Assembly: GCA_051047955.1 (NCBI GenBank)
Contig: JBPGPT010000003.1
Location: 1 to 64,000, forward strand
Direction: 5' to 3'
DNA: 64,000 nucleotides
DNA from: Cystobasidiomycetes sp. EMM_F5
Taxonomy: Eukaryota
Shown: positions 1,052-54,257 of the stretch, one piece after another
Numbering within the stretch: position 1 is the first letter of the stretch
Layout of the letters: every line of letters begins with the position of its first letter
Made by a program: the position numbers and the translations under genes
The notes under the pieces: model-generated
What the model was told of the DNA's origin: nothing
Database searches by the model: none
The model's input: the letters and a program-made list of their open reading frames with translations, nothing else

Positions 1052-4000
1052 ATGCCAGGCGTGCCGATAGCCAGGCCCGAGGCGGCGCATTTCAGCGCGG
1101 CCGCAAAGGGCAAAGGTCGAGCAACAGTGCCAGCACCGTCTAAATACTCGTTCGGCACGCTCGAGCGGGAGAAGCGCTTTGCAGGCCCGTCAACGACCGC
1201 TCACGATGTACCTGCACTCGAGGAGTTGACAGCTCCTCACATCCAGTCGTTTGACGCTCTTTTCCAAGGCGCTCTCGACGCCGACAGGAAACCTTTACCT
1301 GGTTCAGCGGGCAAAGGTCTATTGGAATTGGCCGTGAAAGACATAACGCACAAGGTCATCTTTGACGGAAAGGGGACTGCTAATGGGAAGCTTGGCAACA
1401 AGGTCGAGTGTACGTAGAGCCAAAGTTTTCGACAGGCATAGCGGAGATGTTTGCTGACAGTTCTTTGTCTTTTTGCTAGTCAAGATTGAAGGATTGACTG
1501 TAGGCGCACCTCGAGTCCCGGATCGCGAAAGGTATGGCTTGAATCCCGAACTCAAAGTCTACCCGACAAATGCAAGAGAGCGATTGCGAACATATGCTGG
1601 TCCAATGTCGTGTAAAATCTGCTGGTCTATCAACAATGGCCCATGGCAGTCCGACAACAGACAACTCGGCAACATGCCCATTATGGTCAGGAGCGCCAAA
1701 TGCAATCTCCGTGGCATGAGCAGTGCCGAGATGGTGCAGCATAGCGAGGAATCAGAAGAGATGGGCGGCTACTTTATCGTGAATGGCAACGAGAAGCTCG
1801 TGAGATTCCTTATCGTACCACGGAGGAACCACGTAAACGCCATTATTCGCCCCTCTTTCGGCAATCGTGGTCCATCATATTCGCAGTATGGCGTATCCAT
1901 TCGGTCTGTACGATCCGATCAGACATCTCAGACAAACACGTTGCACTACCTCACAGACGGAGCATTGACAATGCGGTTTTCATGGCGGAAGAATGAATAC
2001 ATGATTCCAGTGGTCATGGTTCTGAAGGCACTCACTTCAGCCTCTGACAAAGAGATCTTCCTCGGCATCATGCAGAACGAGTTTGAAAACACCTTTCTGA
2101 CTGACCGAGTCGAACTGTTACTACGATCCTTCAAGACATACAGTCTGTTCACCGGTGCCCAATGCTTGGCCTTCCTGGGGGAGAAGTTCCGCGTAGTCCT
2201 CGGATGCCCGGAAGATTGGTCGCATACGGAAATTGGACGATTTCTGCTGGATCGCATTATATGCGTACATCTGAAGAGCAACAAGGACAAATTCATTCTC
2301 ATACTGTTCATGATTCGCAAACTTTATGCTCTCGTTGGCGGAGAATGCTGCGCCGATAATCCTGATTCGCCGCAGCACCAGGAGATCTTAATGCCTGGAT
2401 TTTTATACGGCATGATAGTCAAAGAGAAATTGGACGAGATCCTGCTTGGTATACGCGCCCAAATTGCTCAAGATATCCGAAGGGGCACGGCCGACTGCGA
2501 TATTCTGGACAACAGCTACATCACGAAGGTCGTTCGTAAAGTCAATGCAGACGTTGGCAAAAAGCTAGAGTATTTCCTGGCCACCGGAAACCTTGTCTCG
2601 CCTACCGGTCTTGACTTGCAGCAAGCATCAGGGTATACTATAGTTGCTGAAAAACTAAACTTCTACCGCTACCTCGCGCATTTCCGCTGCGTACACCGTG
2701 GTTCCTTTTTTGCCGAACTTAAGGTGAGTGCAAGCAGTGATAGTGCAGCGAAAGCTGATAAATGCTTCATAGACTACTACTGTACGCAAATTGCTTCCAG
2801 AAGCATGGGGATTCTTGTGCCCTGTTCATACGCCAGATGGCTCCCCGTGTGGACTGTTGAATCACTTCGCCCATCAATGTAAATTGGTTACTCACCACCT
2901 AGAAGTATCACATCTTCCGGCCCTTCTGTCGGCCCTTGGCATGACGCAGGCATTTGACCGCTCAGTGAACGGTAAACACAATGTGTGCGTCCAACTTGAT
3001 GGTCGGATAATTGGCTGGGCCACGCCGGATCTGGTCAGAGATATGGGTCGCGCGCTGCGCGTGTGGAAGACGCAAAATCAAAACAATATTCCAATTGACC
3101 TTGAGATCGGTGTTGTTCCCACGTCACACGGCGGACAGTATCCTGGACTCTACCTCTTCAGTACACGGGCTCGGATGATGCGGCCAGTCAAATATCTATA
3201 CAATGACGAACGGGATCATGTTGGATCCTTTGAGCAGGTATACCTCGATATCGCCATCACAAAGGAAGAAATCGCGAAATGTAACGCTACACATATCGAA
3301 TATACGCCAACAAATGTATTGTCGGTTCTAGCAAACTTGACACCCTTCTCCGACTACAACCAGTCCCCTCGTAACATGTATCAGTGCCAGATGGGGAAGC
3401 AGACTATGGGTACTCCATCAACTGCTATCCAACACCGTACGGATAACAAGCTCTACCGACTGCAGACTGGGCAAACGCCCATTGTGAGGCCCAAGCTGCA
3501 CGATCGCTATCAGATGGATGGATATCCGCAGGGCACGAATGCGGTCGTCGCCGTCATTTCGTACACTGGGTACGACATGGAGGACGCTATGATCATCAAC
3601 AAGTCGGCTCTCGAACGCGGCTTCGGCTACGGCAGTATATACAAATCCCATATTACCGACCTCTCGGCAGTCAAAGGAGATCAAGCCCAAGATCCCATAT
3701 TTGGACTTGGCCCTGATATTAGAGCCAATCATAAAGCGCGTGAGGTCATTGACTCGGATGGCATGCCCTTCATTGGTACCAAATTGCGGTACGGTGACGC
3801 TTTGTGCGCATATTGGTCAGAAGCGACACGCCGTACTACGATAGAGAAATACAAGGGAGACGAAGAATGCTATGTTGATCAGGTCAGAGTAATAGGTGAG
3901 TCTCATGGGCAGCTCAGATATTGCAGAATGTGTAGCACTCGCTTATCTCCATTCTATAGCTAACGACCAGGTCGACGGTAAAGCGCAGAAAGCTCATATC

Positions 4001-4888
4001 AAGTTACGAATACCTCGTCCACCGACTATTGGCGACAAATTCTCTTCAAGACACGGCCAGAAAGGTGTCTGCTCACAGCGCTGGCCAGCTATCGACATGC
4101 CGTTCAGTGAGAGTGGTATGCAACCGGATGTCATCATCAACCCGCACGCCTTTCCAAGTCGTATGACAATCGGCATGTTTGTGGAGAGTATAGCCGGGAA
4201 GGCTGGTGGACTGCACGGGATGGCACAAGATGCAACGCCCTTCGCCTTCAGCGAGGAAGATACGCCAGTTGACTTTTTTGGCGAGCAGCTTAAGAAGGCA
4301 GGTTACAACTATTATGGCAATGAGCCAATGTATTCGGGCATTACTGGTCAGGAATTCCCTGCCGACATATACGTGGGCCTAGTGTATTATCAGCGCTTGC
4401 GTCATATGGTCGGCGACAAATGGCAAGTGCGGACGGTCGGGCCAGTTGATCAGATTACTCGACAACCTGTCAAAGGAAGGAAGAAGGGGGGTGGCATTCG
4501 CTTTGGAGAAATGGAACGCGATGCGCTGCTCGCTCACGGAACATCCTTCCTGCTGCAAGATCGCCTGATGAACTGCAGCGACTACTCTACGGCCTGGGTA
4601 TGCCGCACCTGCGGTAGTATGATTTCTCTCGGCTACGAAGATGTGGGACTCGGCATCGACATTGGACTGCATAAGCCGCTGCTGCGCACACGGAGCGAAG
4701 CTAAGGGAGAGTATTGCCGCGTTTGTCGCGCTGAGGAGCAAAAAGCCGTCACACCAGGCACCGGCCTTTCGAAGACCGTAAGTCTGCATCAGGGCGGGCT
4801 CGATGTCGTTGCGGTTCCCTACGTTTTGCGGTACTTGGTAGCTGAGCTGAGTGCTATGAACATCAATATTCGTTTTGGCACGACATGA
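1052..4888 (+). CDS. RPA135: RNA polymerase I second-largest subunit
   Basis: Motifs [69 protein letters not shown]. The Pol I-type [10 protein letters not shown] and [11 protein letters not shown] are present. Introns 1410-1479, 2724-2772, 3896-3959. Confidence 0.97.
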
Positions 4889-5109: not shown

Positions 5110-8100
5110 CTATAGCGGTGGACTCAAAAGGTCTGCTGTTCCACCTCCATCTTCGTCTCTCATTTCACGAGTTGATTGATGGCGGAACACCGCATCGTCT
5201 TCGTCTTCATGTAGCTCGTCTGGTTCGCGCGCGAGGACGATGGCTGGAATTGCGCGTTGCCGAGCCGCTTCCGCACGATGCTGCAAGAACCTGCGGCGCC
5301 AGAACACCGTGCTCAGCAGGCCTCGTATTCGCTCGAGGCTGACGAGATCGTCAACTGTATCCATTCTGGCTTGACGGTGAAGAAGCTCCTCCATCCTACA
5401 ACCCGATCAGTTCCGAATAGCCATTCAGCAACAAGAGCTCACCCCAATGACTTGTTCACATCAATCAGCTTGTGATGTGCTAGGAGGAGAAGCATATCTG
5501 TGAAAGGGATACCGCGGCTAGTCTCACAAAGCAGAGCCTCATGATAGAGCCGATTGAAGAGGCGCTTCCGATCGGCGAGCTCCTTTGAATCTACTGTGTC
5601 CAGACGACGGGCAAGCTCAACCAGGTCAAGGCCCTCTACGAGCTCATTCCGGGTAGTCGATATGCTCTCGAGGGCCTTGGAAGTAGCTACGGTGCGCAAG
5701 TTGCGGAGCCGGAGTTGTTGTGGGTATACGCCAACTTCGAAGACGCCACTCAGATTCTGTGTCGGAAGCACTCAGCAGGTGTCCAGCCTTACAACGCCCG
5801 ACTGACCTTAAAGAAGGGTATGAAGTCATTTCGACGTATATGACCGTTACGGTATCTATCAAACATAGCCCATGCCTTCTTGTATCGACGCATTTCTTCC
5901 CGGCTGACTGAAACTGTTCGACCGTACAAACTGAACACGAAACTGAAGTTCTCTCTGCGAGCCAATAATTCAGCCACGGATCGTATAGATGGCTACTACG
6001 ACTTACACCACCACACCGGTGATCATGTTGAGGAAAATGTACATTGAGAGGATGTTCCATGTGATGAACAATGTGAAAGCATAGCCTGGACTTCCGCAAT
6101 CCGTGAAGAGGTAGCTATCGGAAGGACTGCAGTCAGGCGAATCCAAAGTATAATCATGCATATACGCGTTCCAGCCTTCTCTGTGTGTGAATGTCAGTTG
6201 AACGCAGCCTTCCCGTCAATATTCCCTTACCCAGTGCTCATCAATGTGAGCATGAGCATAGTTTTGGGTAATGTCTGAAAGAGAATAGGTCAAGTCGTGC
6301 AGGTGGTGTAGCCACGATTCGTACTGAGTAATTTTGTCGCCATGTCTCGTTTACGGACCAGCGCGTCAGGCTGAAGTTCTCCAGAAAAAAAATCGCCCAT
6401 ACGAGGAACAGAGTGAGCCATAGTCCAAATATGCTCATTATCGCAGGAAGACTCGTGCTGTGTGACTTTCTTCAGCATAGCTCGTACATGTGCCCAATGG
6501 ACGTGTGTTAAGACTGACATTGCAGTTTTGAAGAGTTGATTCAGGCTGTTATTCTTTTGCACCAGCTTAAAGGCGATGCTGACGAGGAAGAGCTTTTGTA
6601 ATTGTATAGCAGTTTGGCTGGAAGTGCCTAGGATGATGGGTATTGTTGTTGCGAACGTTCCCGTTACTACGAATATGTCATACAAATTCCATCCGTTTTG
6701 ACTAAAACTTTTCCATCCCAGTCCCGTGAAGCGAATGCCAATGTCAGTCGCGTACACCAGCGTGAAAATTAGAAAGATCCAGTCTGTCAATAACAAGCTC
6801 AATGTTTTGGCGGTACTTCACTGATTGGACTATCTTACCCCGCATTTCATCAGCCCAATCTGGCTGTGAATCCGTCTGGGACATGAGCACTGCGATATGT
6901 ATCAAGTATAGGAAAGTCATACATCTTGACCACCAGCCATGCTTATCCACAGATCGATCATAGCACCAGGCACCTATCGACCCCTCGGGGCGATGTATGG
7001 GCTGCTTGGCTGGCCGCTGTCGAACGAGGAGCTTTTTGAGGTCGATCCACTGGCGCTGTTCAGAGGTTAGCAGCGCCATACCAGACCGTAGTCCAAAATT
7101 TTCAATGATAACGGATACGAAGAGCGTGAGTACGACGATGGCGCCGATAAGATTGTAAATGAGGAAAAAGATGGAATTATATTGAGCCGCATCTTGCTGA
7201 GGTTGCTGATCACGGCCGATGATCCCCATAGCTGATGCCATCACTGCTGTCCACCCCTCGAGTGACACAATCTCAAATAGAATAAGGAAAGCAGATCGGA
7301 AAGAATCGAAAGACCAAACGTAGGGGTTCTGCCAGGCTCTAGGCATCAAAAAGGCCCACTCGGCTGGTCTAGCGAGATATTCCCCGGAACACTGCGCTTT
7401 TGTAAGCGCGCTGCTGTCGTTGCAGGAGTACAGTAGACCTGAAAATAGATTTTGACCCCAGACGGAGAAGGGGATAATGTAGAGAATAGTGAGGACAGAG
7501 GCGTCCAGAATGCGGCTTGCTCCTACAATCATAACGTTGTAGAATGTGTCACGCATAGTTGCGGATAAGTTGATGAGTCGTAATGCCCGGAAAGCTTTGA
7601 GCGACCGCACAAAACGATTCAGCGCTGCATTGCTGGTAGACAGCGACGTGGAGATGTCGATCACAAGAGTAATGAGGACAAACAAGTCCAGCAGATTCCA
7701 TATACTGAGAAGATAGGCATTTGGCGTGAAGATAAAACCGTCGGCGATAACCTTGACAAGGAATTCAATGATGAAAATGAACCCGAGTGCGGATTCGGTC
7801 AGATTAAACCACGTCAGTCGTATATGTCTATTTTCAACAAAGTACTGCAGAGAGAATGTGTCAGATGCAGTTGAATTATCACGCTGACTCGGACTCACTG
7901 CTCTGCGATATACAGGGGTCGCGATGGCAGCAACGGCTACACTGGCAATGATTGTGGCTAGGATTGCAATCTTGAATATCGCAGTCCATGTACGGTATGG
8001 GCGAACGCCGTTGACGCGGCTCCCGAAAGGTGGCTCGACTATACGTTGGCAGACTTTCCTCACGAAGTTTTGATTTGAAAAGATCCACAAGGAGCGATCA

Positions 8101-11100
8101 TAGGAAGGATGCGCATCGATGACTGCAGAAAAAGTTTAGATTCGCAAGAGTGTGCAGGCATACATGCTTACAGACGGCCTGTTTAGCTTGTAGCTCTTCC
8201 ACCATAGTCTGGCTTCTGGAAAGTACGGGGGGAGCGTTAAACGACAGGAGATGGCTGTGGGAATGTCTCAACTAAGGTAAGATACGTCTTGTTTTCTTAA
8301 ACTGACAGTTGCTTGTCCACATCATCCTCCATCTCTAAGTTCAATCGCCGCTTTCTGATGGCATGCTTGACCGTCGAAATAATGGAGTCCTGTCCGCCAA
8401 CGGCATCGAAAGGAATGCGGTCTCGACGCAGATGCCGCTGGCCTTTGGGAGAATCGCTTACGGAGCTCGGTTGAAGGCGATGACCAGAGTCTTGTGGGTT
8501 CGGTTTTAAGCCGGTGTGTGCGGCGCTTGCCTGTTGATTACTTCTGAGGAAACGATACGGGTTCAACCGACTGATCCAGCTCGCGTTGGGCTTGGCCGGC
8601 TCATTTTTCTTACTGAAAGCCTCGAGCTGAGCTTTCTGTTTCTCCTCCTCCGCCACAGCAAAACCTTCGTTGATCACTGCAATGAACATCTGGAGCAGAA
8701 TAACTTGAGGTGGTCGACACTTAGCTTTCGACGTGTGCGAATTCTGCAAAAACCCACAGTTTGCAAACATGAACCATCCGCTGATGAAAATCGCCGAAAT
8801 AACAGCCTGGTTGAAGGATGCTTCAAAGCCCAGGGCGTTGTAGAGCGGGGTAGTCCAATTCTCCGACGAAAAGATCTGGTGAAGGTGCCTCAGCAAGATG
8901 CATCTACGTTCATGCCAGGTAGACATACAACGTAGATGGTTAGAAAAGCATTGTATATTTGGTAGAATGACCATTCGATAGACTCGCCATCTGAAGCTGC
9001 GGGTATATCGCCTCGAAGAAACTGTACGGCCTGTATGATACGTATTTCAGTGACGAGAGGCATGCGTTGCTTATGTGACCACTGACAATGACAGCGACCA
9101 GGAAGTTGATCAGCAGCAAGAACAACAACATGTTCAACAGTCCTGCCACCGAAGAAAGAATCTTCGCCAAGAGCTTGCGCATACGCGGTACAGCCAGAAT
9201 AACTCGATAGAACCGCATCAATTGTAGCACAGTAAGCCAAGGATAGATTGCGGAATTATGAATGGCAGGTATCTGCAACACGCATGTGGAGATCGCAAGG
9301 ATAGAATCCGCTAGGTTACTAGCGCGTGCGTTGAAAGCGCGCCAATCAGGGAGGTAGCTCATAAAGCGTATGGCCAGTTCGACAAAGAAGGCCAGAGTAA
9401 AGTACAGCTCTAGATTATCTGCAACTAGATCAGCGCTGAGCGCATGCAATGCTAATTGCACTTACTTAGCAACTGTATGCGTTGAGGGGAATCATCAGCG
9501 GTTTTGGATGCTTGTATACCAACATCGACGATAACTAAAGCTATCCAGACGTAGGAGCCGCGGTCTACCATGCGTCGCCAGAAATAAGCTTGCTTTCTTC
9601 GCGAATTCTTCTGTGGTTCTTTATTGTCATCTACGACAGTTGACGCGTCCTTGCCAGCAAAGGCCGAATGTCTCGTCTCCTCGCGAATATTGCCAAAAGT
9701 GTTGATAATGACGGCAACAAAGATGTTAACCAGCCATATGTTCAAAAGCACAAGACAAACGACGAAGAAGAGCGATGATAGAAAGTACTCCGCATCCTAA
9801 AATTGACAGATGTGTGAGCCTTCTCATAACACCACGCCACAGACTTGTTCACCATGATGTTGTACATTAGCGATGTCCATGTGTTTGCTTGTGAGTCAGT
9901 AATCAGCACATCCGCTAGCCACAAGCTTGAGCTAATACGTACAGCTCATGATCACGACCACTTGAAGTAAGGACGCGAACACATTGTCAAAGCTTTGAGT
10001 GTTGTTGAACGGGTTGGCCTGCTCCAGGCATATTTGACCAAGCGGACAGATGAAGCCTTTGACAGCGATCCCGGAAGACATATTTGAAGCATCGATGAAG
10101 GAATTCGGTAAGCGGGTAAACGGATCGATATGACCGCCGCACAACTGGCTAGTCGAATAGGATGCCACGTTATTGACTGGGTCGACCCAAGTGCACATTC
10201 TCTTAAAAGACCCTCGAAATGACTGCACGCCGATAATACTGCGTTAGTCCGGGTGTGAAATCAGATAACAGTCCTGAGATGGAGTAGAGTTAGCGTCATA
10301 CCTGAAGAGCACCATCGCGAATACCACGAAGAAGGCTACGTTGACCATCATAGGAGCTGACTGTTTGAGACTACGTAATATAGTCTGCGGAGAGTTTAAA
10401 TCAGTGGACGCATTCGATCAATTCAAGAAGACCTTACAGTAGTTCCCGTAGTGATGACCAAAAGTCTGGCAGCACGCAACGTACTCAATGCACGGAACAA
10501 ATAGACATGTTTGTTCCCCTCCACTCCAGTGACAGCGAGTATAAAGCATAGCCAGAAGCTACACACTGCAACGAAATCGACGCGATTCCACGAATGACGC
10601 AAATAAGCCCGCGTGTGTTGCAAATGCTGATCCTGCTGAGCCTGAACTGCTCGGATGAATGGCACATCCTCATGAAGACGGTCGTTTCTGGCTACTTTAA
10701 GCGAACCGGGCATTGATGCTGCTGTCAGCAAGCCGCGTTTTGAGCTGAACGACTTGATGGTGGATGGCGCCGAGAGTGGCACTGGAGGATACGAGGGGGA
10801 TGTTATTGGCGCATCGTTCCTGGCATTGCGGGAATCAGCGCGATGGGGACGCTGCATATCGTCGAGAACCGAGATTGTGCTCGACGTCCTCCTCGGTCGA
10901 CCATGTGTGTTCTGCTCGAAGTTATCTCTGCTGGAAATGGTTCGGTTCCCTGTTTCTCCTGACAGCTTATATGATATCCATGTACGTGTGTTCTGCCATA
11001 TTCGCCTCACCCACCAGCGTGAACCTCCCACACGAAAGTTGAACCGCGAGCTTATGGGTCCTTGAAGAGAGTCTTGGCTGTCGTCGTATGGATCGAAGAT

Positions 11101-12672
11101 GAATCCGCTCACTACTACGCGCATAGCCATCTCAACAGTGAAAATGGAGAAGAGTACGAAGAGTGCGTAATCTTCCCAAGTATGAAAGTAGCCAGGTCCG
11201 CGATAGACTGGGTATATGTAAGTACTTGGTGCAGCTTGAATTGTCAGAACAACGATATTGGCTACTATTAGGGCCAATATGCATGGTTCTGTCCAGGCCC
11301 AGATTAGCACAGCTAAAGATGCTCGCCGCAAAGGATGGGATGGGTAGAACAGCCCTAAAGTTTTGCCTCGCAATGCTTCGCGATCGATCTCCCATCCAAC
11401 GGTGTACTTTTCTGAAGCTGCGTCTTCATGTAAATGCTGCTTTCCGCTGAGTGAAGGCTGTTCAGGGACTGGCGGGTTCAAGACTGGAGGTGCCCGCGTA
11501 GCTTGTCCGGCGTTCTGCTGCTTCTCGTCTGACGAGTCATCGCTGTCTGACTCTCCATCGGGCAACCGAATATGCGCATACTGGTCTGCAATTGCCGTCT
11601 GTTTGAGGTTGACCACTCTTACGCTCAGGCGTTGTAAGCCGCGCCTCGCTGATTCTAGTACAGATCGATTACGAGATAAGCCGGATACAGGAACTGCACT
11701 GCTAAAAGTGTTGGAGCGCTTGTTCCCTTGTCGAATTTCGCCAGCATCTTGTCCTGACCTAAAAGACCCCGAGAGCGTCCTTGGGCCGTACTCAACGTCT
11801 GTAGATCGTACCGCGTCGCTTTGCATGCCCGAGCTTGCATTTCCGATGGGAAAGGAGGTAGCCTCATAAGCAGACGAACTTGAGGAGCTGGCGCGCACCA
11901 TTTCACCTTGATACGAGTATTTCAGTGTTTCCGTCTGCCGCGCTTTGCCTTTCGGAGAACGCTGTTGGCTGGGCATTTCTTGTAGGGTTCGTGAAGAGAG
12001 TGATATGGCCTCTGCGTTGCCATTATCGTTTAGGAACGGATCATCGTGAAGGCTGACTTGGCTCCAGGTCGGCAGCAAGGTATGGCGTGATGCAGAAGCG
12101 TAGCTACCAGGTTGCACCTCTTGTATCGTTCTATGACTGTCGTCTGCGCCAGCCGAAATGTGCATTGTGTTGTCAGCAGAGTGAGACTGTCGGTTTGCGA
12201 TTCCAGTCTCGCCGTACATGTCAGCCGAGGATAGTGGCCTCTGGAGGCGTACTTCAGTACTCTGCAGACGTGAGTGGCCCAACGTAAATTGTCCCAAGTC
12301 AGCCGATGGGTCTCTCGCATGCCTTGAGGCGTAGAAGTTTCGCGGCGATGCGGTTGTAGGCGATGGAATCCAGTTCAGATGCGAAGATGCCGACATGGGT
12401 ATAGCTGCATCGTTGTCATTGGCCAAAGTGGCATTATTCCCATCAGCCAAATTACCAATGGAGCTCCTGCTAGAATTCCGGCGTTTAAGCTGCGAGACTT
12501 CTGCAGCGGGTGTCATCGACATTGAGGATGTTCCAGCGTACGTGTCATCCCCGTTTTGGTTGTTTAGGCCGGGTGAATTTGGTCGTGAATTTGACGAAGC
12601 CCCCGACACTGACGAGCCGATGGAGAAGTCATGGCGATGTCCGGAGCCAGTCGGAGTCAGCCGCGTCGCCAT
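5110..12672 (-). CDS. CCH1: Four-domain voltage-gated-like calcium channel Cch1
   Basis: Four 6TM repeats with S4 arginines. Pore loops after splicing are MSSNTWT, FSSENWT, VSLEGWT and MSTGEGWN (N/E/E/E). C-terminal EF-hand-like [12 protein letters not shown]. Many introns. Confidence 0.95.
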
Positions 12673-12835
12673 GAAGGCCAATAGCCTTGGACAGAGCTGC
12701 GTTTGCGAGCTTGTGCGAGCATTGGGCGAATCGCAAAACGCGGCAGACTTCAAAGGGCCTCGAATAAAGGGCTCCAATTCGACTGACACAATTGCAAGGA
12801 GCTGTGCTCAACTTCAACTGATTCCAAAGATCACC

Positions 12836-13493: not shown

Positions 13494-16400
13494 CTACCAC
13501 CTTTTTGCACCATCGGAACGAGCCTAAATTGTAGGGAGCACAAAGTGTAAGAATCAGCTTTGAACATCTCGTATTACTCAGCCAAACTGTCATCACTCAC
13601 TCCAGGAGGTCGGTAAGTACCAGTCTTCTTGACAGGAGCCACAGTCTGGAAGCCATCCGCGTCCCCGTTACCGTTGGAAGCGGGTGGCGGTCCGCTTGAC
13701 GCCTCGCGAGTTTGTGATGGCGGGCGGGAGTCGATGCGTGCTTCGCTTTTAGGTTGCAGGTTGAAGCGAGGTCGTTCACCAGAAGGTGCAGCAGTATTGG
13801 CAGAAGGAACTGGTGGCGTAGCTGTGCGCGATGGCGGGCCAGATGAAGCAGGAGGTGCGGGTGCAGCTGATGAGCCGTCTCCTGCAGCCTTGCGCGCCGC
13901 CTCTCGCTCTCGCCAACTGCCAGGTGCAACTCCTGGAACACGAGGGCGTTCTCCAGAGGGAGCGGCAGTCGCAGCGGCGGATTCCGCTGGGCGCCACCCT
14001 GCGGAGCCTGGTACAGGGGCGCGTGCCGGAGCTGCAGAAATGCAGTTAGCCTGTTGTGCATCATCTGTACATAGTCCGCTTACGCTGTGCGCGTCGGGCA
14101 GCCTCCTTCTCAGCCAAGCGTCGCTCGACTTCTTCCTCTCTTGCGCGCTGCTTTGCTGCCTGCTCGTCGGCCCGGCCGCGTCGCTCAGCTTCCTCGGCGC
14201 GTCTCTTTTCCCTTGCTTCTTCTTGCACTCGCTTCTCTTCCGCAAGTCTCGCTTCTTCAGCAGCCCGAGCAGCTTCCTCTGCTTCCAAACGAGCTTCCTC
14301 TTCTTCACGGGCGCGACGCTCTGCTTCCTCGGCTGCGCGGCGAGCTTCCTCCTCCTGTCGTCTTCGTGCACGGATCTCTTCGCGTTTACTCTCAACTTCC
14401 TTGCGGCGTTTCTCAATCTCTTCATCAATCTTCTTTTGCGCTTTCGCCAAGCGCTTCTTGTGCTCCGCTTGAACCGCAGCCGTCTTTTCTTCTCGAAAGC
14501 GTTCATAGTCGGGCAGAATGGTATCCAGACGCGCTTTAATCTGTACGTTCTGCGCATGCGCAGCCCGGAGAACTTCGATACGCTGTGCACGAGCGCCTTC
14601 GAATGCCTCACGATCGCGCTTCTGCTGAATCTCATAGTCGAGTTTCAACAGCGGGATCTCTTCGCGTCGCATGGCTCGCTCGGTATGATCAATTCGCTTG
14701 CTGACAATGCGCATCTTCTCGGTCATGTCGCGTCTTGTCTTTTCGATCTGCTCAACTTGAATCTTCATAAGGGCAGCAGTATCCAAATTTTCAATGTCCT
14801 TGTCTGCGACCTTGAGTGCACCAGCAGATCGTAGCTTTTCGGCCAACTTCTTGGCCTCGTCAGCTTTGACTTGCTCATTGTTTTTACGGATCTGCTCGAG
14901 TTGTCGGTGCCTTGCCTCTTGTTCGACTCGGCGAGCTTCTTTGAGCTCGTGCTCACGCTTGGCTGTCGCACGGGCTGCTTCTGCCTCACGCTCCTTGCGA
15001 GAGGCTTCAGCCTCAGCACGCTGCTTCCTCTGCTCCGCGATGAGACGGCGCGACAATAGAGCATCTCGATCAGCAGCCATATTGGCAGCGACGGCTTGCA
15101 ACGCCTTTTCGGCATTCGCTTTGACAATCGCTAGAGCGGAGTGATTTGGAGACAGAATGTCGAGAGAAACGTACAAGGACTGTGCGAGGTGAGTCAGATG
15201 TGTTTGCAGCAAAGTGGAGGGTGTAGGCTGTAGCAGGTCAACAGTTCGCGCGTTGTTCTGGCTATGCGGAGATGGTCCAATCGTCGGCAAAACATCTGCT
15301 GCTTGGTGTTCCACCTCGAAGAGGTTCTCCTCGAATTCTACAATACCGTCATTGTGGTCCAGACGGACCGACAGCTCTCCCCGGCGACACGCATCGGTGA
15401 TGAATTTTTCGATGCGGACCTTTGCCGCATCGGAAGAAGCGGCTTCTCCATCAACCTCGTCCTTGAAAGAAGCCAATTTAACGACGCGTTTCAGACTAAG
15501 ACTGTCGTATACTTGACCGAGCTGTTGGAAGAGCCGTGACAGAACGACATTCTTGAGTGGTTCCACATAACGTTGCGTTTCTGGCGATGCATTGAGGTGA
15601 GCAAGAATTGGCTCTATCTTGCTAGTGATGTGGAGCGGGTGAAAATCAACTTCGATTATGCTGTAAAGCTCCCGGAGTTCTGGTGATACAGATTTCAGAA
15701 TGCCATGTTTGAGCTGTGACAGTGCTTATTAATTAGCGACGGCAAACGAATCAGTACATCGCGAACGAACCGCCTGAGTGAGAAGAGTCTCCCTGCTTGG
15801 AGCAGTGGGAAGATCAAGCAGACCCATCAAGGTCATGCGTCCACGAGTGTAGTCACGCTCGTCGCCGGCATTGCGATTCTTTCGGAATTTGCCCTCATCG
15901 CCAGCAGTGATTGGGACGGACAAAGCACTCAGCAAAACTAAGCCTGCAATGCGGTCTCCTTCAGTGCCAGCGGCACCTGGTGTGGCGGCTTGCAACGTCC
16001 ACAGCTTGCTGTAAGCGGCAGCGTGAAATAGGAAATTCTGTCCAACAGCGAAAACCTTGACGAGCTTCTCGTAGAAGGATGCCATAACGCTCGCTCTGGG
16101 CGTGCGCTTGGATGCTGCCACTAGACCGTGGATATCTTCGGCAGATCGGAAAGCTTCCTGCCATAGTTCCAGTTCGACGGCCGTGTTGAGCTGGGCGAAG
16201 CGGGTGTCGAGGTATCGCTGCAAAGTATCGGGATCCGAGATGTTGATGGCATAATTCTGTTGAGAGTACTTTTGAGCCGTTGCAAAGTGAATTCTAAGCA
16301 TGTCTGCCAGTCTACGGAATTCTGTCTTGCGTTGATGCTTGAGGCAGAATTGAAAAGTCTCGAGAGCGACCTGCTGGTACAAGACTTCGAGACGCGCATT

Positions 16401-26804: not shown

Positions 26805-27808
26805 TCAGTATTCTCCGCCCTCGTCTCCGCCATCACCAATCCCATCATCGTTAGAATCCTCCCCAGCATCGAAGTAATTGTTGTCGTAGTCTCGATTCTC
26901 CTGAGCATCGGCGCCGTGAGTGAATATTGAAGGTTCTCTCGGCAAATCAAAGCGAGACTCGCCTCTTCATCGTCAAATTCATCAGCTTCTTCCTCGTCTT
27001 TTTCGTCGCCGGATCGCGGTTGTTCGTCGTTGTCCTGTGAGACAGTAAATCCAGCATTAGCATAAAGTTATATCCGAGTGAGCACGCGTACCTTGGCATC
27101 GTCTTCTCCGTCTGCGCCTTCCTCTCCGCCGACAACGTCCTTCGTCGCCTTGGCCACCTTCTTATGCTTCTTTCGCGCTAGGAGAGGCAACCTTTCAGTC
27201 GTTCCCCTGTCAGATACAAAGCCGCGGCATAAGATACGCACTGGATCTGCGCTCTCCGTCGAAAAATGCTTTCCACGTCAGGTTCGGAAAAAACTCTGCG
27301 TTCAAGCGAGCTTTCTGTTCTGCATCAGCTAAGCTGGGTAGTTTTTCGACCGGATCTTCGTATCTATCCGAGTATTTCACTGTACCAGCTGTTGAGACGT
27401 GCGGCAAATCAGCGCAATCCATGCACGCAGCCGTGTGTGTATGACTTGCCATCTTTTTCTTCAGGTATTGCTACGTGGTAGGCAGAAAAACGTAACTGCT
27501 TGAGATAAGATTGATAGTATCTCTGGCCCCTCTGCTCCCTATGCGTCGGTTCTTGCCAGTCGGGCAGACCTTGCTTCTGATTTCGCGCAAACAGAGGACA
27601 AATTTAGAACGTCGTTCATATAGGTGTACAAACCTGAACAGCCGCTACGTACGGGAAACAAGCTCTTCTTGAGTTCCTCCTTGCCAGCTTCAATAACTTC
27701 CGTAAAAGAAAATCCTCCCATGAGAGAGCTGCCCGTCATAAACATCCCACCGCGACCAGTGCTGGGTCCGCCTCTGCCCCGTCCTCTGCCGCCGCCGCGA
27801 CCAGACAT
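26805..27808 (-). CDS. RPC31: RNA polymerase III subunit C31
   Basis: RGG-rich N-terminus, KYSDRY, FFP..W, and acidic C-terminus ending NDYDNNYFDAGED...GGEY*. Confidence 0.85.
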
Positions 27809-35423: not shown

Positions 35424-38400
35424 ATGAGCGAGCCGGTGTTGCCGCCTGCTCGGGCGCGGACGCCGACAGCCAGCACCCATCATCACCCACGCAAGAAGCT
35501 GCTCAATAGGCTACACGCTATCGTATCAGGGCCTAAACGTCTGCTAGGTAATCCGACACCTCCAATTCTCGACCCATACACTCCAAGCGGTGGTAGCGAA
35601 ACATCGTCATCGGTCAATAGTAATCTTGGCGAGAGTGATGACGACGAACAACAGTCATCGTCCAAACGTACCGCTCACCTGGATGACCAAGGCGAGGATG
35701 GACGAGCGGAGAGACGGAGAGGTCGCTCAGGCACGGCTTTGCCAATGGCTATACAATCAGCAGCTGCATCATCGAACGCAGGCAGGGCTCCACCGCTATT
35801 CAGAAGCGATTCTGCGTATAGTTCTCGCGTAGAACATATAATCGACACGGAGACGCCGCAACCTCCGGTAATCATCAGACCCCACTTTAAAATCCGTATC
35901 GTAACTTGGTGGGTAGTGAGATGAACGATGGCGGCAGCTCAATCAGTGACTATCCAACTGATCTCAGGAATATGCACGACTCTTTACCTTCTGGCGATTT
36001 GACAGAGCTGATGGGCCACAATGAAGGACCGAATATCAAAACGAGTTGCTCCAATCTTGAAAATGATAGCACTAGACCGACATCAGGGGCCAATGTAACA
36101 ACATCTGAATCTTCAGGATACGGCGGAGAATCTGGCAATCCTGATAATGATCAATTTGGCATACTCTCGGACAAATCGCCATATCATTTGGTAGTCGTGG
36201 GCGGCCAAGAAGTCCCGGTAGGTGGTATGGGATGGAATATGCCCAACTGGACGGAGGTTGTACAATCCTGGTTGGACGGCGGACAGCAATTCGCTCAGCA
36301 GAATTCTACGGCTGCAATGCGCCGAGAATCACAAGTACCAAGCGACACTGAAGGAAGGGCGGTGTCGCCATCTAGCAACCTACATGTGGCAGAGCAAGCC
36401 CTTTCCATGAGCGATAGCCCAATCTCGCCGCCCGTGTCGTCCGCCTCAGCGAGTTTTCCCGATGCGGCCAGTCCTCTTCTGCGAACAGAGGATCAAGTCT
36501 CAATCAATGCGAACAAAGATGCTGGCTCAGACAGTGCGGATCGTACACCGCAAGAAGCGCATTCCACCCCCTTTGCGCACACGAACGGGGAGTGGCCAAA
36601 GATAGACGACGAGGCGGTTGAGTCTGATATGCCTAATGAAACCGCCTTAGACGTTCAAGACGAACGTCTTTTACCCACTGCAGGAATCCGAGACCGCATT
36701 GGCGTTGAATCCACTACGATGCTTTCTCCTGTTCGCACGGAGGGTCTGTGTGCAATCCCAGCGTCTCAAGTTCCAAGTCCACTGTTACAGCCGATGATAC
36801 CCGCAAAAGATCGGGAGAAACGAGGCAGTATTACTGCTGCCATGCTTGGAGGCTTGCGGTCAGACAAGGATCGACTTCGGGATAAGGAAAAGGATAGAAT
36901 GAAAGACAACCAAGAAGCAGAGCGACGGCAAAGACAGGCAAACTCAGCTTACATACTAGTTACCAAAGAACGCCTGATGGGCATCTACATCAGCATATGG
37001 GTGCACAGAAGCGTGCAGCATCTCTTGCGAGGCAGCAGCACCGGCACTGTAACTGCAGGCTTACTAGCGGGAAAACTCGGTAATAAAGGCGCCGCATGTG
37101 TCGCTGTGCACATGAATGCATACTCCGGTCCTAATTTTGCCGATAGAAGTGGCGAAGACAGGTCATTGCGGCTGTTGTTCGTCTGTGCTCACCTCGCTGC
37201 GCATTCGGAAAAAGCGGCTACTCGGCAACAGAACGTGAACAAGATCAAAGAAGAACTCCTTATAGATACTTTCCGCGGTGATGAAACTCTGCGCAGTGAT
37301 GAAAGCAAAGAGGAGGCCAAGGAACGCTTACATCGAGAACACCGAGAGCGTGCAGATGCGCGTACTACCGATATCACAGATGCCTTTGACTACACTTTCT
37401 GGTTCGGAGATTGTATGCATATGCTTTCGCTCGCATTGGAGATATGCTCACACGGACACTTTCAGTGAATTTCCGTCTAAATATTTCCAGGCTGCACGCC
37501 GATTACCTCATCAATAAACAGAAAGACTATGCGACCGCCCTGTCGTTCGATCAACTGGCACCAATCCTGTGAGCGATCTTGTTGAGTCTTATAGTCGTTT
37601 CGTCCTGCTAATGTCAGCATTGTACACAGGCGAGACCCTGCCGGGTGTTTCAGCGGTTTTAAAGAAGCGCCAATCACCTTTCCTCCCTCGTATAAGTATG
37701 ATCTGATTAAGCTGAAACGCACGAAAACTTTGCAGAGAGCAAACACAACCTCATCAACCACTTCTTTACATCAACCCGAAGGACGCGCAGCCAAGGCCGT
37801 ATCAATGCAGCCAAGCGCATCGCGAACGACTCTTCCTATTAAAGAGTGCGATGAGTGTGCTATTGATGGCGAAGATGGCGAAGATGACGAAGAAGATGGC
37901 ATTTCACCTGTCGATGATCGCAAGACGGTGGCTAGCTCTAAAGCGTCTATCAGATCCTCGTACTCGATGACCGATCGACAGCTCGATATCATTCATCAGC
38001 ACAGTGTCGTGTCGAAGAAGTCTACGCCAAATTCTCCTATTCCCACTGCCGAGAAGCTAGCAGACAGCGCCAAAAACTTCTTCAACATTCACCGTCCACA
38101 AAGTGTCCTCGCTCGCGTCACTTCCTCATCGTGTGCAAATGATGCTGCAGCTCGTCTCGAGACAGGGGCCGAAAGCCTACCTGCTTCGAGTCCTGATCGT
38201 GCTGCAACTGATAATCTTGCCTCGGCGGTCCAGATCACTGCTACAGGCAACGATGTCGGAGGTGTCTCGGAGCTCAACGAGAACCCGCAAATTTCGGTAT
38301 CCTCGCCTCAATCACCTCGATATTTCACGCGCCCGATCTTGCCACGCATGAGGACCAGTACCACTATCACATCAAGCTTTGATGTTACTAGAGCGCCCAG

Positions 38401-39784
38401 TCGCAATTCATCAAGGAGGGAGACAGGCACCTTAGATGAAGAAGAGGCAGTCTTTGACACATCAAGTAAACAAAGGGTGCAAAGCTGGACTGATCGCATA
38501 CTGTACAAATCGACCATAAAAACTGTGACCGAGCTGCAGCAGGAAGCGGACGCACGCGAACAAGCGGAAAGAGAATCTCGGCATCTGGGTAGTGTTTTGC
38601 TTGATTCTCTGCGTGGCGTTAGAAGGACACTGACTGGCCATGGGAATGAGCCCAGTGCCACAACTAGTCCTGCCATCGATGTTGACGTCAAACGCAAGCT
38701 ACTGTCGCGGGTCACTTCTTTCAGTGAATCGCATCAAAGAAATGATAAGAGGGGGCTGGCACCCTCAACGACGGTGATCTCCGCCCTACCAAGTGCATCG
38801 CAGGTCTCGCTGTGCGATGACGTAGCTTCGCGATCGAATCACCGCGTCAGACAGCGTCTCGGCAAGCTCTTCCGGCGGAATAGCAGTGACCTGCAAGTCG
38901 AATTGTCCGAGAGCAGGGGCACCCAGAGAAAATCCGTGGATGATGTCAATCTTCAACGACGGGCGTCCTCCTCGCATCGCAACGGACCTTTCCTATCGTC
39001 TGGCTTGCGGAGATCTACGTCAGTCCGCTCTACGGCCTCTATGCATGCAAAAGATGCGCCGGGAGCACACACTCAGCCCCCTTATCGTCCGCTACCAAGC
39101 ACTAACACGCTTGTATCGAATTCGGCCTTGAATGCAGGTCGAGTTGACACAATCGCTTTACAACGAAGTGCGCATGTGGAAGGAAGCTCGCCTATTCCCG
39201 AAACTGGTGGATGGGTTGATGGGCAGACAAATGGTGTCGACGATGATGCTTCGTCCCTCGTTCCAAGTCCAGGCGCATTGACTGGTGACGGCGTTTGCCA
39301 AGACACGATCATTCATAACCGACGGTCGACAACTCCACTTCCTTCATACGATCACAAGCAGACCGATACAGTCCATTCAGCACATCCAGTGGCATCAGAT
39401 ACTCGCCCTTTGCCCACTCGGATCACCCTCGCGCACGCCAGCACTGTTCCTGTCCGCACTATGGGAATGTCTCCCGAACACAACGAAGTCGGCGGCGGTG
39501 CTTTGCGGCAGTGGTGGAACAGTCACAACTTGCACATTCCCTTTTTCGCGCATCACAATCAGCCGTCAATCTCTGCCAGTCTGGCCGATGAGAGTTGCAC
39601 TCCTCCGAGCATGCCTTCAAATCTTTCCGAACCTCTCGACATAGCAGTAACACTTCCACGCCTAGTGGGGCCCGAAAGAGGTGAAGTGCAGTGCTTAAGT
39701 TATCAGTCCATTCATGATTTAGTACGTATGCAAGCATTATCAGATCATCATCCTGTTGTTGCTACTTTTGCTGTAGGCCTGTAG
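35424..39784 (+). CDS. Inositol polyphosphate 5-phosphatase
   Basis: IRIVTW/NM, GGQE, GNKG, CAHLAAH, FWFGDLNFRL, FPPSYKYD, SWTDRILYK, SDHHPV. Confidence 0.92.
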
Positions 39785-46556: not shown

Positions 46557-48816
46557 CTACTCTTCTGGAACGGGCTCCTCCTCATACTCGCCCTCTGGCT
46601 CTTCCTCTTCCGCAGTCGCCTCCTGGTACTGAACGTACTCTTGAATGAGATCGTGCAAGTTCTGCATTATTCACCGTCGTCAGTGATCAGTTGCAGCAGA
46701 AGCCACATCTTCGTTCAGAGACTCACCGACTCTGCCTCTGTGAACTCCATCTCGTCCATGCCCTCGCCAGTGTACCAGTGCAAAAAGGCCTTGCGACGGA
46801 ACATTGCTGTAAACTGATCGCTGACTCTTTTAAAGATTTCCTGAATGGCAGTAGAATTGCCGATAAAGGTGACTGCCATCTTGAGACCTCTTGGTGGAAT
46901 ATCGCACTGCGCCAGTTGCACGTTGTTGGGGATCCATTCGACAAAGTATGATGCATTCTTTTGCTGCACGCTCAACATGTTCTCCTCAATCTCCTTCATA
47001 CTGCACTTGCCCCTGAAGTAGGCCGCCACAGTGAGGTATCGTCCATGTCGTGGGTCGGACGCTGCCATCATATTCTTGGCATCAAACATTTGCTGAGTGA
47101 GTTCGGGAACGGTGACTGTAATGATATTGTAATGCGTAAGCCTTCGTCAGATCTACTCAAGACCTGCATCATCGGCTTACCAGCCCTGTACGACGAAGAT
47201 GCACGAGCAGTGAGGGGCGCGAAACCGACGAGGAAGAAGTGAAGACGCGGGAAGGGAACCATGTTGACGGCCAGTTTACGCAGATCTGAGTTGAGCTGAC
47301 CAGGGAAACGCAGGCAGGTAGTGATACCGCTCATGACGATGGATACGAGGTGATTGAGATCACCGTAAGTGGGAGCATTCAGCTTGAGCGTCCTGAAGCA
47401 GATGTCGTATAATGCTTCATTATCGATGCAAAAGGTTTCTGTATACCAATCCCTTCATCAGCTGAAAGACCCATCCTTTCGCGCAAGAATACACACCATC
47501 GGAGTTCTCGACGAGCTGGTGGATAGATAGAGTCGCGTTGTAGGGCTCCACAACGGTATCGGAGGTCTTTGCGGAAGGGATGACGGAGAAAGTAGCCATC
47601 ATGCGATCGGGGAACTCTTCACGAATCTTGCTAATGAGAAGCGTACCCATACCGGAACCTGTACCTCCGCCGAGCGAGTGGGTGATTTGGAAACCTTGCA
47701 ATTGATCGCATCCTTCGGCTTCCTTTCGAACAACGTCGAGAACGCTATCTACGAGCTCGGCTCCCTCCGTGTAATGTCTGCGGTAACGTATAATCAGTCA
47801 GCTTGGCTTTAATCAAGGCTGACGCGCCGCCTGCACGTACCCCTTAGCTATCGTCGCACAACAGTTTGATGGTCAGACTCAGTGTTTTCGATCGGTGTCA
47901 AGATACTCACCCCAATTATTACCGGCACCAGATTGGCCGAATACGAGGTTGTCTGGTCTGAAGAGAGCGCCGAGTGGTCCAGCTCTGACCGAGTCCATCG
48001 TGCCTGGCTCGAGGTCAACCAAAACTGCGCGAGGCACATAACGATTGGATTGACTCTCGTTGAAGTATACCTGTACATGTCGTGTCAGACATTCGATACG
48101 CGTTGTAATGTGTGGCCGTGTCGCTCCAACCCACATTAATTCGGTCGAGCTGAGCATCGTTGTTGCCCTTGTACTGGCCGGATCCATCAATCCCGTGTTC
48201 TTCGGAGATGACTTCCCAAAACTTGGAGCCGATTTGGTTACCGCATTGTCTGCATATGATTTGGTGTTAGCATTGCTTCAGCCGTACAGCAAAGTGTACT
48301 AGGAACTGACCCTATAATGCGCGAAGACACAGTCGGAGTAGATTGGAAATAAGGATGGTGTCAGCTTGTATTCGACATTTGGTTGCAAGTTGTGCACCAC
48401 GCTCTGCCCTCCGTCCAGGCGGCCGAGCGAAAACATGTAAACTTGCCTGTTTGCCTGCAGAGTTCGAGGGTCGTGACGAGAGTGAATCAAGGCGCAGGTA
48501 GCAGCGACGCAGCGTCAGCTATGTTAATTGAATATTCGTGCGTACTGCTGAGGTATACACGTCGACCTCTCGCGAAGACGTCCGCATTGCCAGACATCGC
48601 GACAAGGTCCGCGCGCGTCCTGGGACTTTTGAAGCGACAAACGGTCCCGAATACCGAGCAGGCAGAGGGCTGGTTGCACTTACAGGTGCACAATCTGCGC
48701 AGATGTATAACACAGACATATCAGCCCCGTCTGTATGCCTCGCCAAAACAAATGGTCGTTTTGACGAGTGTTCCTGGCTGTTTTCCAGATCCGCCAAAAC
48801 TGCCTACCTCGCGCAT
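46557..48816 (-). CDS. TUB2: Beta-tubulin
   Basis: MREIVHLQTGQCGNQIG reconstructed from micro-exons, [37 protein letters not shown], acidic tail. Confidence 0.98.
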
Positions 48817-52428: not shown

Positions 52429-54257
52429 TCATGCCCCATTAGATAGCTGATTGTTACTAGACGCAGTCGCCTGTCTCCACGAATGCGCGACTGCGAGGCG
52501 TGATACTGGTCTTGATTCCGGTGCTTGCTTGCGGCTTTTAACATCATACGTCGACCCGTCTGCAAGCCTGTTTAGTGTGGAGGAGGACACAGCCCGGCCG
52601 AAATTGCCTTGTCGAGGAGCTGAGATATTGGATGCAGCTACGGGCATCGCTATTGCACCAATACCAGATCCGTTCAGGTAAAATAGGCCAGCTCGATTCA
52701 TGGAATGTGCAGCGGCTTTGCTGTGAGGTGAGTATTCCAGCGAGATGACACGCAACTTGCTTTCTGGGTGAGAATCGGGATTGATTGGCTCATTGAGCTG
52801 CAGGAGCGTTGCCAACCGTCGACCAATTGCATTGATGTTCTCAAAGTCACACCCTTCGCGGATCCAAAGCTGTAGCTTGTAGACTTTGGGCCGCGTTGAC
52901 ACAACCGCCCCGCATATGTAGTCGTTCAAATTGTCGAAGTCCTCCCCAATCTGCACGTACAATTGCGACTCGTCAGCATGAAAACATTGCTGTGTGCAAG
53001 GGTGAGAACATACGAGTGCAAAGCAAAGCCACTTCCAAGCTCGATTGGCTCCTTCGAAAGTCGAAGCGTCAATCTTGAGAGTCCACCGCCCGCCAGCTTT
53101 GTTCTTAGGGTCTTCCCACATCGGTCGGATGCCATCCTTGAACAGGTATAGATTTTCATGCATTGCCATGCGAGACGGACCCTTTAGCCAGTTGAAGAGC
53201 CGGCAGAATGATTCAATAGAGCCAACCTCAGCTACGGTGACGAGTCCAGCTTCGAAGTCGTCTTTGTTATTGCCCGCAGAGCGACGTGCGTATGTTGACT
53301 TGCATGCATTTCCAGCATTTGAGTTTTTGCCATCATAGTACAGAACCCAGACGTGCTGCAGTAGATGGCCGTTCATCGCACCTGATGTCATTGCATCGGT
53401 GCCCGTGTCGGCCGGGCTTTCAGGATCGGACTTTGTGCACGACTTCTCGACAAGAGGTTCTGCATCCGTGCAAGTACCAGAGTCGTCTGCTGTAGTCGCT
53501 TCAATGTCTTTCTCATTCGATGACAGAGTCGCAACCTGATGACTAGGCTGTTCGACTAATGAGGCTTGGGGTATGGCTACGTTTGTGCGGCAGTCAAATA
53601 AACAACGCCTGTTACAATTGTAATTGAGCTCACATACCTTCAGCGAGCAGAGGCACCACAGTGGAGATAGAATTCTTCCGTTGGCAGACTCTTTCGCTCA
53701 GAGTCTGCAAACTTGGCAATGTTGCTAATTTCTGGGTCACGCAGGCAGACTGCTCAGCAGATGGTCCATCTTCCATGGTCACCGTCGAATTGCTAGACAT
53801 GCGTTCCATCCTGGCTCCAAGACGAGAAGGGCGTCGCAGACGCGGTTCTGTTGACGTGATGAGATGAACTGGCGGTTTATGAAAATGTAAAATTGAGAGA
53901 GGCTTACCTGATGCTTGATCTGAGGCATTGGGGAAGTGTCCATCGTCCACCTCCACTGCTCGATTTTCGGAGATTGCAGTCGATTGAGTGGTAGTGTCGC
54001 CTTGCGCAGATTCATCTGTGTTGTTGAAAGAGGCATCTGGTGTGGCTTCAGTAGAATCTTCATGTCTTCTGTGTTGTCATGACGAAACATCAGCAGCCGG
54101 GCACTTGTCAGGCAGAGTGGGAAAACCATTAGCCAGCAACGCACCGACGACCAAAGGTTTGTGCAATCTGCATTAAGGACGGCGGTCTCTTCGAAATGCT
54201 GCCGACGTGACTCCGCTGGCTGCCATTAGCAGTGGCGGGCGTGTTTGACACGGTCAT
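52429..54257 (-). CDS. eIF4E-family cap-binding protein (class II/4EHP-like) with a long N-terminal extension
   Basis: HLLQHVWVLYYD, LFKDGIRPMWEDPKNKAGGRW, ICGAVVSTRP, LQLW. The upstream exons (start MTVSNT) are less certain. Confidence 0.88.

Follow-up and report, generated by a model that had tools for sequence, protein, structure and literature searches.

Can an exon of a housekeeping gene be as short as one nucleotide? The question is raised by the β-tubulin gene in a 64,000-nucleotide (nt) stretch of DNA from the Pucciniomycotina fungus Cystobasidiomycetes sp. EMM_F5 (GenBank assembly GCA_051047955.1, contig JBPGPT010000003.1, positions 1 to 64,000 of the forward strand), referred to here as the window. 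The gene lies on the minus strand (46557..48816), and all coordinates below are those of the window. A preliminary description had proposed that the codon for Gly10, within the LQTGQCGN motif, is split across three exons, the middle one being the single G at position 48311, placed between a GC-AG intron and a GT-AG intron. Our analysis leaves this as the best-supported explanation, reached by sequence logic, and we regard it as likely that the spliceosome treats G48311 as a genuine exon of one base in a functional β-tubulin gene.

The anatomy of the split codon is as follows. Exon 3 (48447..48454, minus strand, as are the other parts of this gene), an 8-nt micro-exon GCAAACAG that comes after the acceptor ctgcag, provides the third base of Leu7, the codons of Gln8 and Thr9, and the first base of Gly10. 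Exon 5 (48135..48249, 115 nt) opens with ACAATGCGGTAAC at 48249, starting with the third base of Gly10. The coding parts of exons 1-3 add up to 28 nt, and with exon 5 beginning at the third base of codon 10 the reading frame is exactly one base short. Adding G48311 as the middle base of Gly10 (G-G-A) leaves the 447-codon frame open throughout and makes it read LQTGQCGN. This base is found in TATAG|G|GTCAGT (48316-48305), directly between an acceptor AG and a donor GT. On its 5' side lies intron 3 (48312..48446; 135 nt, GC-AG, donor CAG|GCAAGT, acceptor TTATAG), which would occupy phase 1 of codon 10 and has a candidate branch site GCTGAC at 48360..48365; its branch A (48361) and the 3' splice site are 49 nt apart, and the stretch that separates them is free of AG. 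On the 3' side lies intron 4 (48250..48310; 61 nt, GT-AG, donor G|GTCAGT, acceptor ATGCAG), in phase 2 of the same codon, with a candidate branch site GCTAAC at 48266..48271 (branch A at 48267, 17 nt from the 3' splice site). The sites, coordinates and intron lengths of the preliminary description match the minus-strand sequence exactly, and the branch-like motif that it assigned to each intron is present. Each of the two introns has its own donor, branch motif and acceptor and a workable length, and the Gly10 codon is probably interrupted by two separate U2-type introns one base apart. Predicted RNA folding of 48460-48240 gave nothing notable (z = +1.46). A comparison of intron 3 with intron 4 scored 16, against a shuffle mean of 13.3 and maximum of 22, with no sign that they are sister introns or products of duplication.

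The gene around this codon is intact. It runs from the ATG at 48816 to the stop at 46557 and is modelled with 11 exons (9, 11, 8, 1, 115, 160, 7, 281, 258, 389 and 105 nt, from first to last) and 10 introns (113, 229, 135, 61, 64, 63, 63, 58, 65 and 65 nt). The joined coding sequence of 1344 nt consists of 447 codons and a stop, contains no internal stops, and encodes a 447-amino-acid protein with the N-terminus MREIVHLQTGQCGNQIG. Pfam domains Tubulin (PF00091, E = 4.4e-29) and Tubulin_C (PF03953, E = 3.3e-31) are detected on exons 6, 8 and 10, the N-terminal MREI and GQCGNQIG motifs are both present, and the modelled protein is 84.6% identical to a β-tubulin of Puccinia triticina and 90.4% identical to P0049, a protein of 447 amino acids encoded on a contig of 1.7 kilobases (kb). 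By its domains, N-terminal motifs and sequence identity, the locus is a β-tubulin gene. The contig of P0049 has no room for introns, and it is therefore probably a transcript of a relative. When the protein was compared with 32 full-length β-tubulins, the columns conserved in at least 97% of them contained a single deviation, P173A; because there is only one such deviation, the gene is, judging by this conservation, under strong purifying selection. The substitution falls in the T5 loop (codon 173, about 47560-47580, minus strand), which reads SAKTSD in place of the usual SPKVSD; P0049, the closest relative, retains SPKVSD.

Is a one-base exon needed to obtain the conserved motif? We enumerated the splice paths leading from exon 3 to exon 5; all GT and GC donors and all AG acceptors were admitted, and a path could contain one to three introns, none shorter than 35 nt. 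There are 118 in-frame, stop-free paths, only two of which yield LQTGQCGN, and both include a one-base exon. The strong path is the one that places G48311 between the 135-nt GC-AG intron and the 61-nt GT-AG intron. In the other, the one-base exon is G48408, flanked by introns of 38 nt and 158 nt, the longer of which has the donor GCAGAG; at 38 nt, the shorter one falls below all the other 12 introns modelled in the window (47-229 nt). The best path that avoids a one-base exon uses the donor GTTTAC at 48442 and removes a 193-nt intron, at the cost of a Lys inserted into the motif (LQTGKQCGN); this alternative had been pointed out in the preliminary description and is present as claimed. Neither GCAGAG nor GTTTAC has the G at position +5 that is found in all 11 donors of our reference set, made of eight introns of the tubulin gene and three of RPA2, a gene for an RNA polymerase I subunit in the same window. 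The earlier statement that LQTGQCGN is recovered only if G48311 is exonic is too strong as worded, since the G48408 path and the single non-canonical introns discussed below also give LQTGQCGN.

The signals around G48311 are unlikely to be accidental. Of 20,000 dinucleotide shuffles of the 197-nt interval between exons 3 and 5, 50 contained the pattern YAG-G-GTNNGT with 45 nt or more to each side; once a CTRAY motif was demanded as well, lying 10-60 nt upstream and separated by no AG, the count was 15 of 50,000. On both strands of the 64-kb window (128 kb in total) this 10-mer pattern occurs three times, the site at G48311 included. We favour the one-base exon because models with a single intron turn an internal YAG-G-GTNNGT, together with workable sub-introns on both sides, into a coincidence. 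The donor context CAG|GCAAGT of intron 3 fits the strong consensus of GC-AG introns. Its acceptor, TATAG, resembles those of two of the three RPA2 introns (ATAG and TATAG), and is the first AG past the CTGAC motif; intron 2 is laid out in the same way, in that 60 nt without an AG separate its acceptor from a candidate CTGAC. The length of intron 4 (61 nt) falls in the 58-65 nt class formed by introns 5-10, and a single intron replacing introns 3 and 4 would be 197 nt long. A de novo intron finder run on the window was too permissive (81 GT candidates and 75 GC candidates), and no frequencies were drawn from it.

Three other micro-exons are found in the same gene, of 11, 8 and 7 nt, all flanked by canonical introns, and very short exons therefore appear to be routine here. 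The coding part of exon 1 (ATGCGCGAG, 48808..48816) encodes MRE and is followed by a 113-nt GT-AG intron. Exon 2, the 11-nt micro-exon (48684..48694), encodes IVH and two bases of Leu7, and precedes a GT-AG intron of 229 nt. At the far side of exon 5, the 7-nt exon 7 (CTAAGGG, 47841..47847), with a 63-nt GT-AG intron on each side, completes the sequence W-AKG-H. The first ten codons of the gene are cut by four introns, and the three introns closest to the 5' end (113, 229 and 135 nt) have two to four times the length of the remaining seven (58-65 nt).

Several facts weigh against the use of G48311 as an exon. The AG-G-GT site is known here from one genome alone. Intron 3 has a GC donor, and in the donor of intron 4 position +3 is C, where all 11 reference introns have A or G, although GTCAGT also heads four further intron candidates in the window, defined by pattern and unverified. 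The best branch motif of intron 3 is 49 nt from its acceptor, compared with 14-31 nt in introns 5-10. A fully canonical path exists that joins the GC donor at 48446 to the acceptor at 48250, removes 197 nt and skips the G, so that translation stops at codon 113, which makes a degree of unproductive splicing plausible. In each of six sequencing runs the share of the sampled words present was at most 11%, and no run is recorded as RNA. A protein search with exon 5 against database proteins of at least 71 amino acids gave no match above 85% identity, and hence no transcript of this species was found. Finally, mature mRNA alone cannot tell a one-base exon from a single non-canonical intron. The donor of intron 3 begins with a G (G48446) and intron 4 ends in one (G48250), both identical to the exonic base, and for this reason three different descriptions of the splicing give the same product, CAAACAGGACAATGC. 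The preliminary description had offered a cDNA read of this sequence as a check on its proposal; such a read is expected under the one-base-exon and the single-intron models alike and does not separate them.

The identical Gs speak for reading the whole interval as one intron of 196-197 nt with non-canonical ends, either CA-AG (48445-48250) or GC-CA (48446-48251), and the CTAAC branch site close to its 3' end could serve such an intron. Outside the GT-AG, GC-AG and AT-AC classes introns are extremely rare, each of the 12 other introns modelled in the window is GT-AG, and the acceptor, exonic base and donor in the middle of the interval would once again be there by coincidence; we consider this explanation exceedingly remote. 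It is also conceivable that the assembly has lost one G at the border of exon 3 and intron 3, where GGG would be the true sequence in place of GG. Exon 3 would then end in GG and be joined to exon 5 by removal of one ordinary 197-nt GC-AG intron in phase 2, with an identical mRNA; that position is occupied in β-tubulin genes of other organisms (see below), and the count of bases at 48447-48446 is the one in the assembled sequence. This account, too, has to ascribe the internal YAG-G-GTNNGT to chance, at the shuffle frequencies given above. Moreover, about 3.3 kb of the coding part of RPA2, which was aligned to two homologs, and the remaining 1343 nt of the tubulin coding sequence show no frameshift, and the donor is ideal as assembled (CAG|GCAAGT) and becomes weaker with the extra G (AGG|GCAAGT). 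A sequencing or assembly error is therefore highly improbable.

A different kind of explanation holds that no canonical β-tubulin is made from this gene. The G may be skipped, giving the frameshifted junction ACAGACAATGC, as would be the case in a paralogue that lost its function recently. Alternatively, the donor GTTTAC may be used, giving the Lys-insertion junction ACAGGCAAACAA and the LQTGKQCGN protein. The skipping path combines fully canonical GC-AG sites with the strong CTAAC branch site, a second β-tubulin gene could exist outside the 64-kb window, and P173A is an unusual substitution. Yet a frameshift at codon 10 should in time let stops accumulate in the remaining 437 codons; they are open, with one deviation at the highly conserved columns, and all eight other introns of the gene are still canonical GT-AG. 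As for the Lys insertion, it depends on a donor that differs from all reference donors at +5, and would place Lys inside the G-Q-C-G-N sequence that is kept in nearly all tubulins compared. Loss of the canonical product by either route seems to us quite unlikely. Weighing these explanations together, we infer that G48311 is used as an exon.

Do other β-tubulin genes have introns in the Gly10 codon? We scanned metagenome sequences for an acceptor AG followed by one base and the back-translated QCGNQIG. Of 12 stretches obtained, 11 are chance matches in bacterial-looking DNA and one is a real β-tubulin gene (L005, 2500-2620, minus strand of that locus) from an unrelated eukaryote, with a protein that starts MREIVHIQAG. 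In L005, a GT-AG intron is found in phase 2 of Gly10: an ordinary upstream exon ends in GG and the next exon starts with C CAG TGC. A second example comes from P0243, an unspliced open reading frame on a 2.6-kb contig, whose tubulin looks Agaricomycete-like. Its translation has LFS immediately before QCGNQIG, which implies that the Ser codon is AG plus a pyrimidine, i.e., the acceptor followed by the third base of Gly10. Judged from these sequences, other lineages share the position of intron 4. For intron 3, in phase 1, the sequences compared gave no counterpart.

A search of genome contigs with P0049 gave 42 loci, either eukaryotic tubulin contigs in prokaryote assemblies or bacterial tubulin-like genes, and a search of viral contigs gave no match. 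The gene model was compared with L005 and with seven of the 42 loci, picked for a long match span or contig size; none of these seven has an intron in Gly10, as at least the first 19 codons are on one segment in each. Many assemblies labelled as bacteria or archaea (L013-L054), such as a Microbacterium-labelled isolate and several gut metagenome-assembled genomes, contain short eukaryotic β-tubulin contigs with 72-85% identity; these are most likely eukaryotic contamination. A group with 46-52% identity, on long contigs of Myxococcota/Polyangia, looks like genuine bacterial tubulin-like genes.

An annotated β-tubulin from Phenoliferia sp. (P0116), which belongs to the nearest named group, has an N-terminus without QCGN. 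Small 5' exons have probably led to a faulty gene model here, and N-terminal micro-exons in β-tubulin genes may be widespread and mis-annotated in Pucciniomycotina.

How does the proposed exon compare with those already described? The preliminary description called one-base exons very rarely documented, and this has to be revised, as they have been published in Arabidopsis, in Fusarium and in Coprinopsis. The one-base exon of APC11 in Arabidopsis thaliana was proven by base substitutions traced into cDNA (Guo and Liu 2015, PMC4674806). It resembles the β-tubulin case in that the exon is constitutive (as is proposed here), lies between two U2-type introns, is required by the reading frame and has a branch site about 44-49 nt upstream. 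It differs in being a plant exon made of an A, which cannot be confused with the G of a donor, and in having been proven by substitution, whereas the β-tubulin exon is proposed from the DNA sequence. The closest fungal parallel is the cytochrome P450 gene CYP621A of Fusarium, where a one-base exon is found in 20 orthologs with support from SRA reads (Nelson and Syed 2026, PMC12940212). The likeness extends to the identical core AG|G|GT (AGGGT) in a fungal nuclear gene, to the G as the middle base of a Gly codon in a conserved motif, to a combined intervening sequence more than twice the usual intron length, and to the inference from flanking exons that are out of phase. CYP621A, however, is a rarely expressed accessory gene of Ascomycota, with 20 orthologs and SRA reads behind it, whereas the gene studied here is a core housekeeping gene of Pucciniomycotina with a GC-AG intron upstream of the proposed exon. 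In the basidiomycete Coprinopsis cinerea, annotation with long reads revealed 13 genes with one-base exons (PMC12230235). Micro-exons of 1-3 nt are an ordinary feature of the genes of this species, and basidiomycete spliceosomes can therefore handle such exons; the available part of this source differs from our case in giving a genome-wide count and no detail for individual genes. Thus one-base exons are of a known kind, and the probable example described here is notable for its setting in a core, highly expressed gene and for the pair of GC-AG and GT-AG introns one base apart. In the literature searched we found no one-base exon or micro-exon in a tubulin gene, with older papers on gene structure in rusts and other basidiomycetes probably outside that search.

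Two other systems in which splice sites are crowded together have to be considered. Recursive splicing at ratchet points, which are zero-length exons of the form AG|GT, is known in Drosophila and vertebrates. As in the β-tubulin gene, an acceptor there abuts a donor and two consecutive reactions reuse the same few bases, but nothing is retained at a ratchet point, and one base would be kept in the mRNA here. A zero-length recursive splice site was rejected for this locus, as G48311 sits between the AG and the GT and is required in the mRNA. In a stwintron, an internal intron interrupts the donor, branch site or acceptor of an external intron, which comes into being only once the internal one has been excised (Fekete et al. 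2017, PMC5587772). Stwintrons share with this locus the complex fungal intervening sequence, two consecutive U2 reactions, intron definition, and positions one base apart around a shared G (PMC5587772). No exonic base separates the introns of a stwintron; in the β-tubulin gene the signals are intact, and phase 1 and phase 2 of one codon, the two discordant positions, would both be occupied. The stwintron readings [D1,2] and [A2,3] were likewise rejected: the donors GCAAGT and GTCAGT and both acceptors are intact, with one exonic base between the introns.

The splicing of the Gly10 codon may be envisaged as follows. Fungal splicing pairs sites across introns, as argued by Fekete et al. (PMC5587772), and under such intron definition the donor, the branch site and the first AG downstream of it would specify each intron separately. 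In the predicted arrangement the intron-3 acceptor overlaps the intron-4 donor (TATAG|G|GTCAGT, a patch of 10 bases); since two spliceosomes could not act on overlapping sites at once, introns 3 and 4 would be removed sequentially. Either order of removal appears workable, because AGG precedes the intron-4 donor with or without intron 3, and the acceptor TATAG|G is unchanged by the removal of intron 4. The order and the efficiency of removal are predictions of this scheme. The process would resemble recursive splicing, except that one base is retained, and its product would be ...CAA ACA GGA CAA TGC..., translated as LQTGQCGN.

A more speculative view is that the one-base exon acts as a built-in splicing switch, where productive mRNA would require two ordered, recursive-like splicing steps and the ratio of inclusion to skipping would tune β-tubulin output through nonsense-mediated decay. 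The stop at codon 113 in the frameshifted transcript that skips the G is upstream of three exon junctions. On this view the locus would in addition have both discordant positions filled at the same time, a state in which losing either intron yields an apparent one-nucleotide intron shift. We regard this reading as rather doubtful. If G48311 is an exon, the locus also bears on the origin of intron positions one base apart.

If G48311 is indeed an exon, the smallest possible exon occurs in a housekeeping gene that is universal, abundantly expressed and widely used as a standard marker in fungal phylogeny; by contrast, the published one-base exons belong to APC11 of a plant, a rarely expressed Fusarium P450 and an unnamed gene set of Coprinopsis. 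With high expression of β-tubulin, half-spliced intermediates and the two lariats would be readily detectable, and the order and efficiency of the two reactions, one of them with a GC donor, could be measured. For annotation, gene predictors will be expected to truncate or misread the N-terminus of such genes, P0116 being an example, and primers or markers designed over the 5' end of β-tubulin in Pucciniomycotina would need to take account of four micro-exons.

The rest of the window gives some information on the host lineage. RPA2 (1052-4882, plus strand) has three short GT-AG introns of roughly 47-67 nt, and its nearest named relatives are Microbotryomycetes (Microbotryum, Leucosporidium and Phenoliferia), with 67-70% identity; identity no higher than this indicates a sparsely sampled branch of Pucciniomycotina, for which the databases searched contain no close sequenced relative. 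Neighbouring genes recognised by Pfam domains encode eIF4E (52429-53697, minus strand), two proteins with ion-transport domains (open reading frames at 6744-8135 and 10423-12807, both minus), a PCI-domain protein (14061-15725, minus) and a protein of the endonuclease/exonuclease/phosphatase family (35891-39784, plus). At 27389-27449 on the minus strand there is a 61-nt candidate intron with the donor GCAAGT and a CTRAY motif 20 nt from a CAG acceptor, flanked by open frames of 51 and 58 codons, which may be a second GC-AG intron in the window.

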